Part shown: positions 4,095-8,452 of the stretch, piece by piece
Layout of the letters: the number at the start of each line of letters is the position of its first letter
Position numbering within the stretch: position 1 is the stretch's first letter
Virus record (IMG/VR): IMGVR_UViG_3300042691_022081
Span: 6,872-70,871 of that record
DNA from: a virus
Strand: one strand, 5' to 3'
DNA length: 64,000 nucleotides
Translations under genes and position numbers: made by a program
Notes under the pieces: generated by a model
Told to the model about the DNA's origin: nothing
Seen by the model: the letters and a program-made list of their open reading frames with translations, nothing else
Databases searched by the model: none

Positions 4095-4990
4095 TAAAAA
4101 TCTGAGTGTGCTCTAAGTTTTTGTTTTTTGTAGCCTTGTTCGAGCAACAAAGCATGATTAGGTAATGTATTAACGCAGTGGTCGACTAGAACATCTTCAC
4201 GACTGACTGAATAATGACAAGTAGGGCGCACACCACGCCAACTGTCCAAGACACGCTTAACACGATGATCGTCCGCGCTGATATATTCGGACTCACGTAT
4301 CCAATGATGGTGAATATCAAGCACAATAGGAACGATATCGCTAATAGTAAGGCAGTCATCTAAACCCCATGCATTCTCTTCGTTTTCAATAGTAATACAG
4401 TTACGTGCCTCGGGAGATAACCGCTTGTAAGCACTTCTAATACCATCCGGACCTTGTTTACCTGAAATATGAACATTGATTTTAAAGTCTTGAAATTTCT
4501 TACCATAGCCCATGTATCGAACCATGTCTGTATGATATTCAAATTCTTCTAAAGATCGTTGAACAATACCTTCGTTAACACTAGCAAGAACAACAAACTG
4601 ACCAGGATGCATAGAAACACGGGTACCGCTTGCACGAGCACTATCACCAATAAGGCTAAAATTGCGCTCAAGATAGCTGACAACGTCAGGCTTGCGCCAA
4701 AAATAACTCCAACTAGGCTCGGTATAAGCAGGAAGAATGTCGCTACTAAGGCGAACCATCCTAAGATTTTCATTGAGTCCTCCCACACGGTCTACAAGTT
4801 TTTGTGTAGCCGAAATGTTTTGCACCATCAGATCCCAGAGTCTTTGCTCTGCTACATCCTTTGACTGTCTATTTAACCAAGTTATGGTAGTTGTACCAGT
4901 ATTATACTGTTTGGCATCATCGTCTTTCTTGATACCATCTACTTGATCGGCGCGGTCGATCCATTTACACGCAAAGCCTATTTTACCCAT
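3962..4990 (-). CDS. uvsE: UV damage endonuclease UvsE/UVDE
   Basis: IGFAC, RLSSDILP, RVSMHPGQFVVL, TIENEE, LDIHHH and AHSD motifs; likely start MGKIGFAC at 4990. Confidence 0.92.
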   Translation of the reverse strand: MGKIGFACKWIDRADQVDGIKKDDDAKQYNTGTTTITWLNRQSKDVAEQRLWDLMVQNISATQKLVDRVGGLNENLRMVRLSSDILPAYTEPSWSYFWRKPDVVSYLERNFSLIGDSARASGTRVSMHPGQFVVLASVNEGIVQRSLEEFEYHTDMVRYMGYGKKFQDFKINVHISGKQGPDGIRSAYKRLSPEARNCITIENEENAWGLDDCLTISDIVPIVLDIHHHWIRESEYISADDHRVKRVLDSWRGVRPTCHYSVSREDVLVDHCVNTLPNHALLLEQGYKKQKLRAHSDFYWNQKTNEWAITFLNQFDIMCESKGKNLASMELYNQAQTYLENN

Positions 4991-5187
4991 TACCAATGCC
5001 TTATAACGCCTGCAATTATGAAAAAGTTTGTGATAATGTATATTAACACAATTAGCGTACGAATGCAAGCAATTCGGTCCGCTTCCACGTCCGAACTGCC
5101 TGATTTTTCTCCTAATGCTTTAGCCCAAATGCGCCAAAGTTTAGCCTTCGTAGATTGCTGAATTGGCTCCATGCTCAAACACTTCAA
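4990..5187 (-). CDS. Small conserved phage membrane protein
   Basis: LWRIWAKALGEK...DRIACIRT...AGVIRHW resembles a small ORF common in T4-like aquatic phages; one TM helix; start uncertain. Confidence 0.6.
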   Translation of the reverse strand: MKCLSMEPIQQSTKAKLWRIWAKALGEKSGSSDVEADRIACIRTLIVLIYIITNFFIIAGVIRHW

Positions 5188-5623
5188 CTGATTTAACTCT
5201 TACTGTTGGGTTAACTGGGTAACGCATATTACCTGATGCTAATAAGTCAGCCATTTTATCGTAGGCCATTTTAGCAAACATTTCGCATCCTACCGCAGGC
5301 ACAATACGCAAGTCACAAACTCCGCCTTGATCCTGAAGTCCAAGTTCTGCCATTTGTTTGAACATGTCTAGTTTTGGGTCATCTTCAGCAACTACCAAGG
5401 TGTGATCAAACATATAGTCTGCCCACTCCTTAAATGCTTTGAGTCCACCAAAGTCCATACACCAATTTTTATCATCTAGTGTATCACATTCAAATACTAG
5501 TTTGATACCAATCGAGTATCCGTGTAGTAATGAGCAATGACTATGAGTTGAGCGCCATTGTCTAAAACAGCATGATAAGCCGCGGTCGTTGCCGTATGTT
5601 TTTGTCGAGTAAAATTTTGCCAT
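5141..5623 (-). CDS. queD: 6-carboxy-5,6,7,8-tetrahydropterin synthase (QueD/PTPS family)
   Basis: HCSLLHGYS, MDFGGLK, FDHTL and EVFEHGANSA motifs; AAGGAG RBS. Confidence 0.88.
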   Translation of the reverse strand: MAKFYSTKTYGNDRGLSCCFRQWRSTHSHCSLLHGYSIGIKLVFECDTLDDKNWCMDFGGLKAFKEWADYMFDHTLVVAEDDPKLDMFKQMAELGLQDQGGVCDLRIVPAVGCEMFAKMAYDKMADLLASGNMRYPVNPTVRVKSVEVFEHGANSAIYEG

Positions 5624-5688
5624 TGTTATCTCCTTAGATTAGCAATGGCGGCAGAATTTATATTGCGGGATGACGCCTAAGGCCGCAT
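5619..5688 (-). promoter_or_regulatory. Putative preQ1-I-like riboswitch or structured 5' leader of queD
   Basis: The minus strand reads UGCGG-CCUUAGGCGUCAUC-CCGCA-AUAUAAAUUCUGC-CGCC. P1 is UGCGG/CCGCA and loop GGCG can pair with the downstream CGCC. A competing hairpin GCCAUUG...CAAUGGC buries AAGGAG and the AUG. Confidence 0.6.
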
Positions 5689-5694
5689 AATGTA

Positions 5695-5722
5695 ATTATA
5701 CAGGTTTATATGTTAGAGTCAA
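5695..5722 (-). promoter_or_regulatory. sigma70-like promoter for queD-uvsE
   Basis: TTGACT-N16-TATAAT; the predicted start site falls at the 5' end of the structured leader. Confidence 0.7.
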
Positions 5723-5724
5723 CT

Positions 5725-7173
5725 TTATTGGCGACTAATTGCACCAAAAGGTAACCATTGACCAGGAGCACCACTGTCCATGCATATCCAGCCAACATAG
5801 TTGTCTACAGTTGGATTTGAATTCCAGCAGATGTCGCCTTTATTGAACGAGCCAACTGTTGGTGCGCTAGATCCTGTAATAAATTTTTTATTTGAAAACT
5901 GAATGTTCCCACTAACTGCCAAATCAACATCATCTGGAGGAGTGTTAATTCCCACAGTTAATTGTCCAAACACTTTAACTGGAACTTTTGTATTTTGTTT
6001 ATCACCAATTGTAATTTCATTTCGATCTGCATAAAACTTTTCTTGTCCTACAACGTCCATTACAATTTTTTGATTTGAGGAAAGTTTTCCGTTAGTTATA
6101 GTGAACTCATTGCCATCGTTAAACAAAATAGTTTTTGCATTAATCACTGCACGACTGGCGTTGATCCTGTCCATAAAGGTAGCTTCGCCCTGAACATTCA
6201 ATTCATCGAGAGTTCCTAGTTTAGAAATATTTGATTGAGTAACATTTGGCCCAAGCCCTTTGCTAGAAATAACAGAAACTCCGTTTATCATATAACTTTG
6301 ATCTTCTGCTAAATCAATAGATTCTGTGGACCATAGTCTATCTGGGCCAGCCATCATAACAAACTGTCTCATGCTACCAGTACCGGTCCAAACTAATCCT
6401 TGTCCGTAAATTGCACGTTCTCTGCTTGTTTTAAATTCTAAAGGTTGGTATCTGTCGATACGGTTGTCAGCTACTACAGTATCAACAGTTAACGTACCAT
6501 AAATTCTTACATCAGCATTTTTAGTCGATTCGTTTCCAAAAACAACTTGTCCATTATTTTTTATAGCAATTCTAGGCAAATTGTCTGTTATGATTTCTAA
6601 ATCATGACTAGTATATGTTCCTATCTGTGCTAGATTATCTCTTGGTGAGCTAATGATTACTTCTACATTATTATCAACTACACTTAGTACGCCGTTTGGA
6701 TTATCTGTGTTTAATCCTAATCTTCCAAATGCACTATTAAAATGTGCAAAATCTGCAATCGAAGCTTCGCCAGAAACTACAAGTTTTCTTAAAGTTCCAA
6801 GTTCTTTTAAATTACTTCTTGTAATAGTCCCGCCAAGACCATCTTTACTAAGCACAGGCGTATTTTCAATCATGTAAGATTTGTTTGCAGCAAGATCTAT
6901 GTCTGCGTCAGTCCACAGTCTAGCACCAGAACGATATGCTAACTGTATAGACCCTGTTGGCCAAGTCCAATGTAACCCTTTGGAAAATAATTCAGTCTCG
7001 TCTTCTACAGTCCAACTGCCAATGTCAGCGAGTGCGGTTTTTGGCTCTTCATCTAGCACTTTTAGTGAATTTACAGTAAGTGTGCCGTCAAGAGTCACAT
7101 CTCCTTGTATATCATTTACAGTGAGTTTTTTAATGACAACTTTGTCGTCTTGAATGGAAAAAATTTGGCTCAT
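5725..7173 (-). CDS. Putative virion structural / tail-fibre-associated protein with an internal duplication
   Basis: Two repeats of GL.WT...RLW....IDLA...SYMI....V.S..GLG.....SN...LGTL..L.V.GEA; C-terminal APTVGSFNKGDICWN...GWIC...GQW; upstream TAAATA at 7193-7198. Confidence 0.6.
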   Translation of the reverse strand: MSQIFSIQDDKVVIKKLTVNDIQGDVTLDGTLTVNSLKVLDEEPKTALADIGSWTVEDETELFSKGLHWTWPTGSIQLAYRSGARLWTDADIDLAANKSYMIENTPVLSKDGLGGTITRSNLKELGTLRKLVVSGEASIADFAHFNSAFGRLGLNTDNPNGVLSVVDNNVEVIISSPRDNLAQIGTYTSHDLEIITDNLPRIAIKNNGQVVFGNESTKNADVRIYGTLTVDTVVADNRIDRYQPLEFKTSRERAIYGQGLVWTGTGSMRQFVMMAGPDRLWSTESIDLAEDQSYMINGVSVISSKGLGPNVTQSNISKLGTLDELNVQGEATFMDRINASRAVINAKTILFNDGNEFTITNGKLSSNQKIVMDVVGQEKFYADRNEITIGDKQNTKVPVKVFGQLTVGINTPPDDVDLAVSGNIQFSNKKFITGSSAPTVGSFNKGDICWNSNPTVDNYVGWICMDSGAPGQWLPFGAISRQ

Positions 7174-7224
7174 AATAACGTCTCTTGTCCAGTATTTATC
7201 TTAGACTAAGAGTAACACATCGCC

Positions 7225-7251
7225 AAAAAAAAGCCCAGGATTAACTGGGCT
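7225..7251 (-). terminator. Rho-independent terminator
   Basis: Hairpin AGCCCAG/CTGGGCT followed by a T run on the minus strand, just after the stop at 7259. Confidence 0.8.
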
Positions 7252-7258
7252 GTTTAAA

Positions 7259-8452
7259 TTACGCTATTTTAAGTAGAATGGTCTCTTCGTTAATTCGGCC
7301 ATTCATTTTAGTATCTGTAGCATTGATATCCTCTAAGAACTTACGCAACTGTACCTTACCCGCAGCTTTAAACTCTTTGAGCTTTTCTTCGGGTTTACGG
7401 ATAGTTTTTTGAACACTTGTATGTTCGTTAAACCCAGTAATTGTAGTACCTTTAACACCAAGATCCATATACTCATTGGCAACATATTTGCCAAGTTTGC
7501 GAGTCTTAGTATTAAACACCCACAATTCCTTGCTACCAATAATGTCAGCAGGATTAATAGACACAAGTTTCAAAGGCTCATCTGTTTTCTTGAACTTGAG
7601 TTTAGCAACAATCTTGTCCTTAGGAACAACTTTGGCCTTGCGGGGCTTACGATTAACTTTGGCTTCTTGTCCAAGCATATCGCAAGCACTCATAATTTCT
7701 TGATAGAACGCAATTAAGTTTTTAATCTGCTTACGGCTACGATGACTGTAGCCTTCACGCAACTGTTCATCTGCATTACCGCTAGCAAGTTCTTCGAGTT
7801 CAGCTAGATCGCGAGCATAAAACTGTTTAATAATACGTGCATGGGCAGCTTTGGCTTCTTTACCTTTGAGCAAGTTAAGAATTTTAAATGCTTTTGGATC
7901 AAAATTTTCTGGATCAGTTTGAAAATTTTCAATAGCATCTTCAATTTCCTCAGTCATTTTGTACGCAGCTTCACGCACACGATCCTGGATTGAAGGAGTA
8001 AATACCGCAGGTTTTTCAACTTTGGCTTCTGCTTCTTCGTCGATGTCATCCTTACCTTCGCGAATAACTTCATTAATGCGTTCACGCAACCAAGCTGAAG
8101 TATCACGACCGTTGTTAAAGTCTGCACGAACAGCAGGCATACCGCGGAGCAAACATGATGCGATAGCACCCATAGTACCACCACATCGGTTATCTTTGGT
8201 TTTCTTAAATGCTTGAATGTCTTCTTTGGTACAACCAATTGAGGTCATCCATTTAATAACAGCAGGCTTTAAATCTTTACCGTTAAATTCCAATCGGTAG
8301 TAGTCCATGGCATTACGAAACTTTTTACTAAATTCGTCAGCAGTCAAAGTATCAACATCATCCCAAGTAGGGCTGTGATCCTTAGGCGTTTTGCTACGAT
8401 GTGCAATCACTTGCTTTTTAGTTACACGAGTTTTGGTTGCTGCTTTAGCCAA
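7259..8452 (-). CDS. Hypothetical phage protein (Lys/Glu-rich)
   Basis: Long ORF; likely TTG start at 8452 with AGGAG RBS; has its own promoter and terminator. Confidence 0.75.
   Translation of the reverse strand: MAKAATKTRVTKKQVIAHRSKTPKDHSPTWDDVDTLTADEFSKKFRNAMDYYRLEFNGKDLKPAVIKWMTSIGCTKEDIQAFKKTKDNRCGGTMGAIASCLLRGMPAVRADFNNGRDTSAWLRERINEVIREGKDDIDEEAEAKVEKPAVFTPSIQDRVREAAYKMTEEIEDAIENFQTDPENFDPKAFKILNLLKGKEAKAAHARIIKQFYARDLAELEELASGNADEQLREGYSHRSRKQIKNLIAFYQEIMSACDMLGQEAKVNRKPRKAKVVPKDKIVAKLKFKKTDEPLKLVSINPADIIGSKELWVFNTKTRKLGKYVANEYMDLGVKGTTITGFNEHTSVQKTIRKPEEKLKEFKAAGKVQLRKFLEDINATDTKMNGRINEETILLKIA

Follow-up and report, generated by a model that had tools for sequence, protein, structure and literature searches.

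The leader of a queD-like gene carried by an uncultured lake phage contains a conserved H-type pseudoknot, of which the 3′ pairing strand is at the same time the 5′ strand of a helix sequestering the Shine-Dalgarno sequence (SD) and the start codon. The DNA analysed, referred to below as the window, is a stretch of 64,000 nt corresponding to positions 6,872-70,871 of IMG/VR record IMGVR_UViG_3300042691_022081. Promoter, pseudoknot and SD/AUG hairpin lie upstream of the queD-like gene at positions 5619-5722, on the minus strand. With moderate confidence, we read this leader as a cis-acting translational switch based on the pseudoknot, a candidate for stabilisation by a ligand, that would turn on synthesis of the QueD-like protein. 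By default, the downstream hairpin would bury the SD and the AUG, and translation would be off. The knot would be stabilised by a small molecule, most likely a heterocycle resembling guanine that belongs to, or lies close to, the GTP, pterin and 7-deazaguanine pathway; the stabilised P2 helix would then take the 5′ strand of the hairpin, the start site would open and QueD would be translated.

All leader elements described here are on the minus strand of the window. Helix P1 comprises 5 bp between UGCGG (5687-5683) and CCGCA (5668-5664). The loop that it closes consists of L1, CCUUA (5682-5678), in which C5681 and U5680 form the CU invariant in the family, the 5′ strand of P2, GGCG (5677-5674), and L2, UCAUC (5673-5669), whose last residue, C5669, stands directly 5′ of the P1 3′ strand. 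The tail is formed by the A/U-rich L3, AUAUAAAU (5663-5656), a UCUGC segment invariant in the family (5655-5651), and the P2 3′ strand, CGCC (5650-5647), complementary to GGCG. The resulting H-type pseudoknot spans ~41 nt (5687-5647). Residues G5649, C5648 and C5647 are common to P2 and to the SD/AUG-sequestering hairpin (5649-5619), predicted by minimum free energy (MFE) folding at -11.6 kcal/mol. The outer stem of this hairpin pairs GCCAUUG (5649-5643) with CAAUGGC (5625-5619) and contains the start codon (5623-5621), while its inner stem pairs AUCU (5639-5636) with AGAU (5631-5628); the SD, AAGGAG (5635-5630), falls within the hairpin loop and the inner stem. The promoter, P1, GGCG/CGCC knot and SD/AUG hairpin proposed in a preliminary description of this region all proved correct in every sequence detail.

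The promoter, of the sigma-70-like type, is made of a -35 hexamer, TTGACT (5722-5717), a 16-nt spacer and a -10 hexamer, TATAAT (5700-5695), which ends 7 nt 5′ of P1. This 11/12 match is the best of seven promoter-like sites in positions 5000-7500, a number showing no excess over chance (6.9 expected). The promoter is kept in all 37 distinct upstream regions of the TGCGG class and in 49 of 164 overall (shuffles: mean 3.5, maximum 7); 35 of these 49 regions have the same 7-nt distance between the -10 hexamer and P1 as the window. Since the -10 hexamer ends 6-11 nt 5′ of P1, the predicted RNA begins with the aptamer: the transcript would start at or just before it. The window stretch is present in DNA runs of 13 studies, described as freshwater, lake water or “fungus metagenome”; the sole RNA run covers 4% of sampled words with contigs off the leader, and has no bearing either way. 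Two nucleotides separate the -35 hexamer from the end of an ORF of 482 amino acids without Pfam match (5725-7173, minus strand). Many related loci have the C-terminal residues of this ORF (..W.PFG.I....) in front of the motif as well, and this gene order is therefore common within the clade of the window.

Taken alone, the leader of the window is unremarkable, with an MFE of -17.2 kcal/mol (z = -0.63) and 47 of 200 shuffles folding at least as well; the 31-nt hairpin has one occurrence in the window and none in 100 shuffles. It is the relatives of the leader, rather than its own fold, that make it more than chance. They were collected by two routes yielding sets with few contigs in common. A protein-similarity search of IMG/VR with the QueD-like protein returned 347 relatives, of which 80 loci were kept; the leader motif is found in 77 of them (the exceptions being loci L037, L058 and L066), and UCUGC is likewise present in 77/80. 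A DNA pattern built from L2, the P1 3′ strand, L3 and UCUGC retrieved at least 120 viral loci. Among the matches listed, the 5-bp complement of P1 is present upstream in 119/120 loci and the next ORF belongs to a single PTPS/QueD-like BLAST cluster in 116/120, the remaining four comprising a cupin-like protein, an unassigned protein and two truncated loci. The motif is near-exclusively linked to queD-like genes. Pooling both retrievals gives at least 120 distinct aptamers and at least 154 distinct leaders.

Both helices of the pseudoknot covary. P1 was counted on a MAFFT alignment of the protein-retrieved aptamers (A1, 49 distinct rows). Its five pairs are formed in 96-100% of sequences and three of the five display compensatory changes (A-U/U-A, C-G/A-U/U-A and G-C/C-G). 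The covariation score of P1 is 0.323, compared to 0.084 in shuffles; none of 500 shuffles reaches it, and slid controls stay at or below 0.101. Because alignment A1 misregisters P2, whose length varies between 4 and 5 bp among members, this helix was counted on a gapless alignment of 37 columns (A2, 98 distinct rows) from the pattern-selected loci, in which the selection biases the loop columns but leaves the P2 columns free of pattern constraint. There, 70.3% of P2 cells are paired against 47.4% in shuffles, and the covariation score is 0.607 against 0.226, again reached by none of 500 shuffles (slid controls ≤ 0.209). The five inner pairs are formed in 81-90% of rows with up to six pair types, as illustrated by the variants GGCG/CGCC, GGCAU/AUGCC or AUGUC, GACGC/GUGUC, GACUU/AAGUC and GACAA/UUGUC. 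The two outer positions (columns 1 and 2) are paired in only ~30% of rows; P2 of the window has 4 bp. It follows from the covariation of P1 and P2 that the pseudoknot is real and conserved. The preliminary description had named a lack of conservation and covariation of P1 and of the GGCG/CGCC pairing among the results that would refute its proposal; the opposite was found.

A covariance model of the aptamer (R1) was used to follow the distribution of the motif; it was calibrated briefly and its E-values are therefore rough. In the window, R1 detects one strong copy (58 bits, E 2.7e-18), the next match scoring 11.4 bits. Five complete jumbo-phage records of 316-382 kb (G001-G005, reached via loci L010, L109, L105, L160 and L043) contain exactly one copy each, at 44.5-61.8 bits, with the next match at 18.5 bits or less. 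The motif is thus present as a single copy per genome. By contrast with these uncultured phages, blastn of a 701-nt region against the cultured phages of GenBank gave no match, and three aptamers of 53 nt gave partial chance matches inside coding genes (E ≥ 0.3). On three cultured phages with a homologous QueD (Iggy, PhiXhv-15 and RHEph04), R1 reaches at best 11.7 bits and finds no motif. A scan of prokaryotes (one genome per species, 185,579 species, 596 Gb) yielded 41 pattern matches. Only five of them display the full motif, all five followed by the start of a queD-like gene and all on MAG contigs of 4.1-8.1 kb, which are probably phage fragments. The one point in favour of a chance similarity devoid of function is the ordinary fold energy of the single leader. 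Against it stand the position of these five full motifs, each before a queD-like start in 596 Gb of cellular genomes, and the conservation and covariation across about 120 distinct aptamers; the P1/P2 covariation refutes it, and its probability is negligible.

The unpaired residues of the knot are also strongly constrained. The first three nucleotides after P1 are N-C-U in 120/120 distinct aptamers, N being A in 43, U in 41 and C in 36. In all 51 protein-retrieved aptamers, the C ending L2, three A residues of L3 and the UCUGC segment are invariant; L2 reads UCAUC in 109/120 distinct aptamers, a count biased by the search pattern. No pairing partner for UCUGC was found by eye. One candidate partner, GCGGA, possible in the class of the window, was rejected as P1 covaries while UCUGC does not. 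Given that no partner was found, we presume that UCUGC makes tertiary contacts or belongs to the pocket. By analogy with known aptamers, whose likeness is considered below, the invariant unpaired nucleotides next to the P1/P2 junction would fit a ligand pocket. The conserved cytosine 5′ of the P1 3′ strand suggests a putative ligand with a guanine-like edge, and deazaguanines, pterins and guanine would all fit. Both the binding of a ligand and its kind are what we infer from these features.

The second half of the proposed mechanism concerns the competition between P2 and the sequestering helix, which the preliminary description had put forward for the window and which extends to the family. 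When the platforms are folded by MFE, two or more of the five P2 3′ nucleotides are engaged with the SD-AUG region in 152 of the 154 distinct leaders; shuffled platforms reach the same pairing in a mean of 50/154 and a maximum of 62. When the five P2 3′ nucleotides are blocked, the mean platform energy rises from -8.8 to -3.9 kcal/mol. The topology in which P2 and the sequestering helix share a strand is therefore a property of the family, and it is recurrent in design rather than in sequence. At least three platform designs occur: class a, GCCAUUG...CAAUGGC, to which the window belongs; class b, GUCAUC...GAUGGC; and class c, CCUAUG...CAUAGG. They account for 19, 54 and 41 of 120 distinct aptamers, respectively, with six others. 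In class a, none of the seven stem pairs shows a double change, the 3′ strand being the fixed AUG-GC, so that support for the hairpin comes from the recurrence of the design and not from covariation.

As the P2 3′ strand is the 5′ strand of the sequestering helix, knot and helix are mutually exclusive, and formation of the knot should therefore open the start site. The ON direction is what this modelled competition predicts, and it agrees with the direction of the preliminary description. The calculated energies for the window are near balance. Giving GCC to P2 leaves -1.6 kcal/mol of the hairpin, and the alternative fold, P2 (-5.0 kcal/mol) plus this remnant, amounts to -6.6 kcal/mol. Compared to the -11.6 kcal/mol of the intact hairpin, this difference is such that a modest stabilisation of the knot would tip the equilibrium. 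To note, biosynthetic genes are not usually controlled by ON switches, which counts against the ON reading.

A structured leader working with no ligand is rather unlikely in our estimate, but deserves to be weighed at this point. It might be an operator for a phage or host protein, for example QueD itself or a translational repressor, or a fixed or temperature-sensitive tuner of queD. A hairpin that is off by default would by itself lower translation, and pseudoknots act as protein operators in phage mRNAs. Yet the motif accompanies queD-like genes that belong to several subfamilies and lie in differing neighbourhoods, so that no common protein partner is apparent apart from QueD. The many invariant unpaired nucleotides by the P1/P2 junction and the likeness of the fold to a known aptamer would also fit a pocket. 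The ligand-stabilised ON switch is retained as the preferred reading.

The gene under this leader (5141-5623, minus strand) encodes a protein of 160 amino acids with a PTPS fold, as identified with Pfam and PHROG profiles. It matches Pfam PTPS (PF01242) at 55.8 bits (E 5.7e-15) and phrog_2389, “QueD-like”, at 127.8 bits, but remains below the cut-off of NCBIfam QueD TIGR03367 (35.7 vs 89.25 bits), as do the other motif-linked QueD-like subfamilies (29-80 bits). A PDB sequence search with this protein returned 0 matches. With the QueD of Pseudomonas phage Iggy and that of Rhizobium phage RHEph04 it shares 53-54% identity; both of these are encoded inside annotated queE-queC-queD-folE-dpdA clusters and have no leader of their own. 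The motif-linked QueD-like proteins form several subfamilies, most of them with a C-x3-H-G-Y motif (CSLLHGY in the window); locus L150 has C-x3-H-G-H, which is the canonical QueD/PTPS motif. Because of this substitution, their metal site may differ.

An ORF of 65 amino acids (4990-5187, minus strand) overlaps the end of queD. It matches phrog_1679, of unknown function, at 87.5 bits, and its C-terminal half is hydrophobic by eye. A homologous small ORF starts -4 to +3 nt from the queD stop in 11 of 73 related loci with the next ORF called; in a twelfth locus it begins 86 nt downstream of that stop. In view of this overlap and of the homologues at the queD stop, the 65-amino-acid ORF may be translationally coupled to queD and come under the same switch. 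Further away, positions 8504-58752 of the window, on both strands, are dense in radical SAM proteins: 12 ORFs match PF04055, several of them with B12-binding, SPASM or twitch domains. The same region encodes an aminotransferase, 2OG-Fe(II) oxygenases, a fatty-acid desaturase, an Fe/Mn superoxide dismutase, ClpP, an IF-1-like protein and a Bax1-inhibitor-like protein.

The pathway context was examined in the five motif-bearing complete jumbo genomes. All five encode FolE (PF01227, 130-138 bits) and a QueE-like radical SAM protein (phrog_2076, 160-178 bits, compared to 182-199 bits in Iggy and RHEph04). At one related locus, L072, a QueE-like gene starts 2 nt after queD; elsewhere the neighbours of queD vary. 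DpdA (phrog_887) is detected in none of the five, while the controls Iggy and RHEph04 score 272-292 bits, and a single-sequence search with the Iggy DpdA found none in these genomes either. The Pfam TGT profile PF01702 was discarded as a DpdA probe: it finds nothing in the five genomes, but it also misses the annotated DpdA of Iggy and RHEph04, which phrog_887 finds at more than 270 bits, so that its negative result is no evidence of DpdA absence. The QueC-like profile phrog_1550 gives partial matches of at most 30 bits in the five genomes, against 170-234 bits in the same controls. Of all weak QueC-like matches obtained, one is a NadE and the others, at 30 bits or less, cover part of a PP-loop or a zinc motif; none was accepted as QueC. 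Judged from these profiles, the motif-bearing jumbo phages seem able to make 7-carboxy-7-deazaguanine, but the steps that normally lead on to preQ0 and into DNA cannot be recognised in the five genomes. Since FolE, QueD and QueE are encoded but neither QueC nor DpdA is recognisable, it is doubtful that the pathway serves DNA modification, and preQ1 may not be the ligand.

A more specific proposal is one that we put forward tentatively and hold to be possible rather than probable. The leaders would form a candidate class confined to phages, in which a preQ1-I fold has been re-tooled to sense a metabolite other than preQ1 and, as an ON switch, gates the flow of the FolE product into 7-deazapurine synthesis. 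This metabolite may be, for example, CDG, CPH4, dihydroneopterin triphosphate or a folate-type pterin. We know of few riboswitch classes, if any, that are restricted to phages, and to our knowledge every described preQ1 class switches genes off. If the proposal is true, it provides an aptamer of ~41 nt with strong covariation, a changed pocket and a reversed logic, hence a small ON switch of natural origin in which to study how a minimal aptamer fold changes specificity. The motif also draws attention to a puzzling pathway in lake jumbo phages, which encode FolE, QueD and QueE but neither QueC nor DpdA in recognisable form.

The relation to preQ1-I was addressed with Rfam. With Rfam 15, the whole window yields no match at gathering score, and the FolE/QueD neighbourhoods of the five jumbo genomes yield 0 matches. 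A ToxI match at 5439-5468 (17.7 bits, E 1.3) was dismissed as chance. The preQ1-family models find nothing at E ≤ 10 in positions 5400-5900 or in 19 related loci. The gathering threshold of RF00522 is 39 bits, and a Bacillus leader (L264) used as positive control was found at 46.8 bits. The suggestion made at the outset, that the leader is a variant and not an ordinary preQ1-I, to be verified by an Infernal search against Rfam, is borne out by this result. In the reverse direction, R1 applied with filters off to the 3-kb Bacillus locus places its best match exactly on the genuine preQ1-I (10.4 bits, rough E 0.0056), with an alignment limited to P1, L3 and the first part of L1; this match is a hint of kinship or convergence, not of membership. 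Full-text literature searches confined to the body of articles, including passages of PMC5737381, returned no description of the motif.

The review PMC11625349 describes several conserved features of preQ1-I: a strictly conserved C directly 5′ of the P1 3′ strand, which is the specificity base and is preceded by U in type I and by A in types II and III; a conserved U immediately 3′ of the first P1 strand, doubled to UU in types I and III, which contacts the ligand; and an L3 rich in A that leads without interruption into the P2 3′ strand, the latter overlapping the SD or favouring a terminator (OFF). The phage RNA shares with this description the H-type pseudoknot with its two covarying helices, the C 5′ of the P1 3′ strand (51/51) and the G-C closing pair of P1, the floor of the pocket (47/49 distinct sequences). 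In other respects it departs from it. The ligand-contacting U is replaced by the variable N of N-C-U; L3 is A-rich but leads into the invariant UCUGC; and the P2 3′ strand does not carry the SD but pairs with the SD-AUG region. The phage RNA also stays short of the gathering score of RF00522. The replacement of the U and the position of the SD outside P2 both add to the variant reading.

An ordinary but diverged preQ1-I, binding preQ1 and repressing queD, for instance through steric hindrance by a knot just upstream of the SD, would account for the common fold, the U before the specificity C, the G-C floor pair, the A-rich L3, the queD gene downstream and the weak recognition of a genuine preQ1-I by R1. 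According to the abstract of PMC10018353, a preQ1-I separated from the ribosome-binding site still regulates translation, which would make such a repression conceivable. Nevertheless, the failure of RF00522 to match the window region and the 19 loci even at E ≤ 10, when the control is readily found, the lack of conservation of the preQ1-contacting uridine of L1, the additional UCUGC and the location of the SD argue against it; moreover, the sharing of a strand between P2 and the anti-SD/anti-AUG helix would be purposeless in an OFF design. We consider this explanation improbable, and the ligand-stabilised ON switch remains the one we favour.

Three known systems bracket the phage RNA. Type I preQ1-I (RF00522, for example in Carnobacterium antarcticum), as presented in PMC11625349, resembles it in the H-type knot, the 5-bp P1 with G-C closing pair, the UC that directly precedes the second strand of P1, the A-rich L3, the cytosines in the tail and the position before a gene of the queuosine pathway. 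In contrast to type I, the phage RNA has N-C-U in place of UU, a longer P2 (4-7 bp) and the extra UCUGC, its SD lies outside P2, its predicted logic is reversed (ON), it does not score with RF00522, and it is found in uncultured phages only. The type II representative, the Bacillus queC leader L264, is close in sequence: its P1, AGAGG/CCUCU, and the start of its L3, AUAAAAA, are identical to those of some phage members, such as L005. This leader has AC before the P1 3′ strand, a P2 of 3-4 bp formed via the tail CUA, and a terminator platform; the corresponding features of the phage RNA are UC, the UCUGC segment and a platform acting on translation. The closest parallel in mechanism is the add adenine riboswitch, whose aptamer fold, a three-way junction, is unrelated and whose ligand is known, but which is likewise a translational ON switch: there, a ligand-stabilised pairing of the aptamer takes up the strand that sequesters the SD and the start codon.
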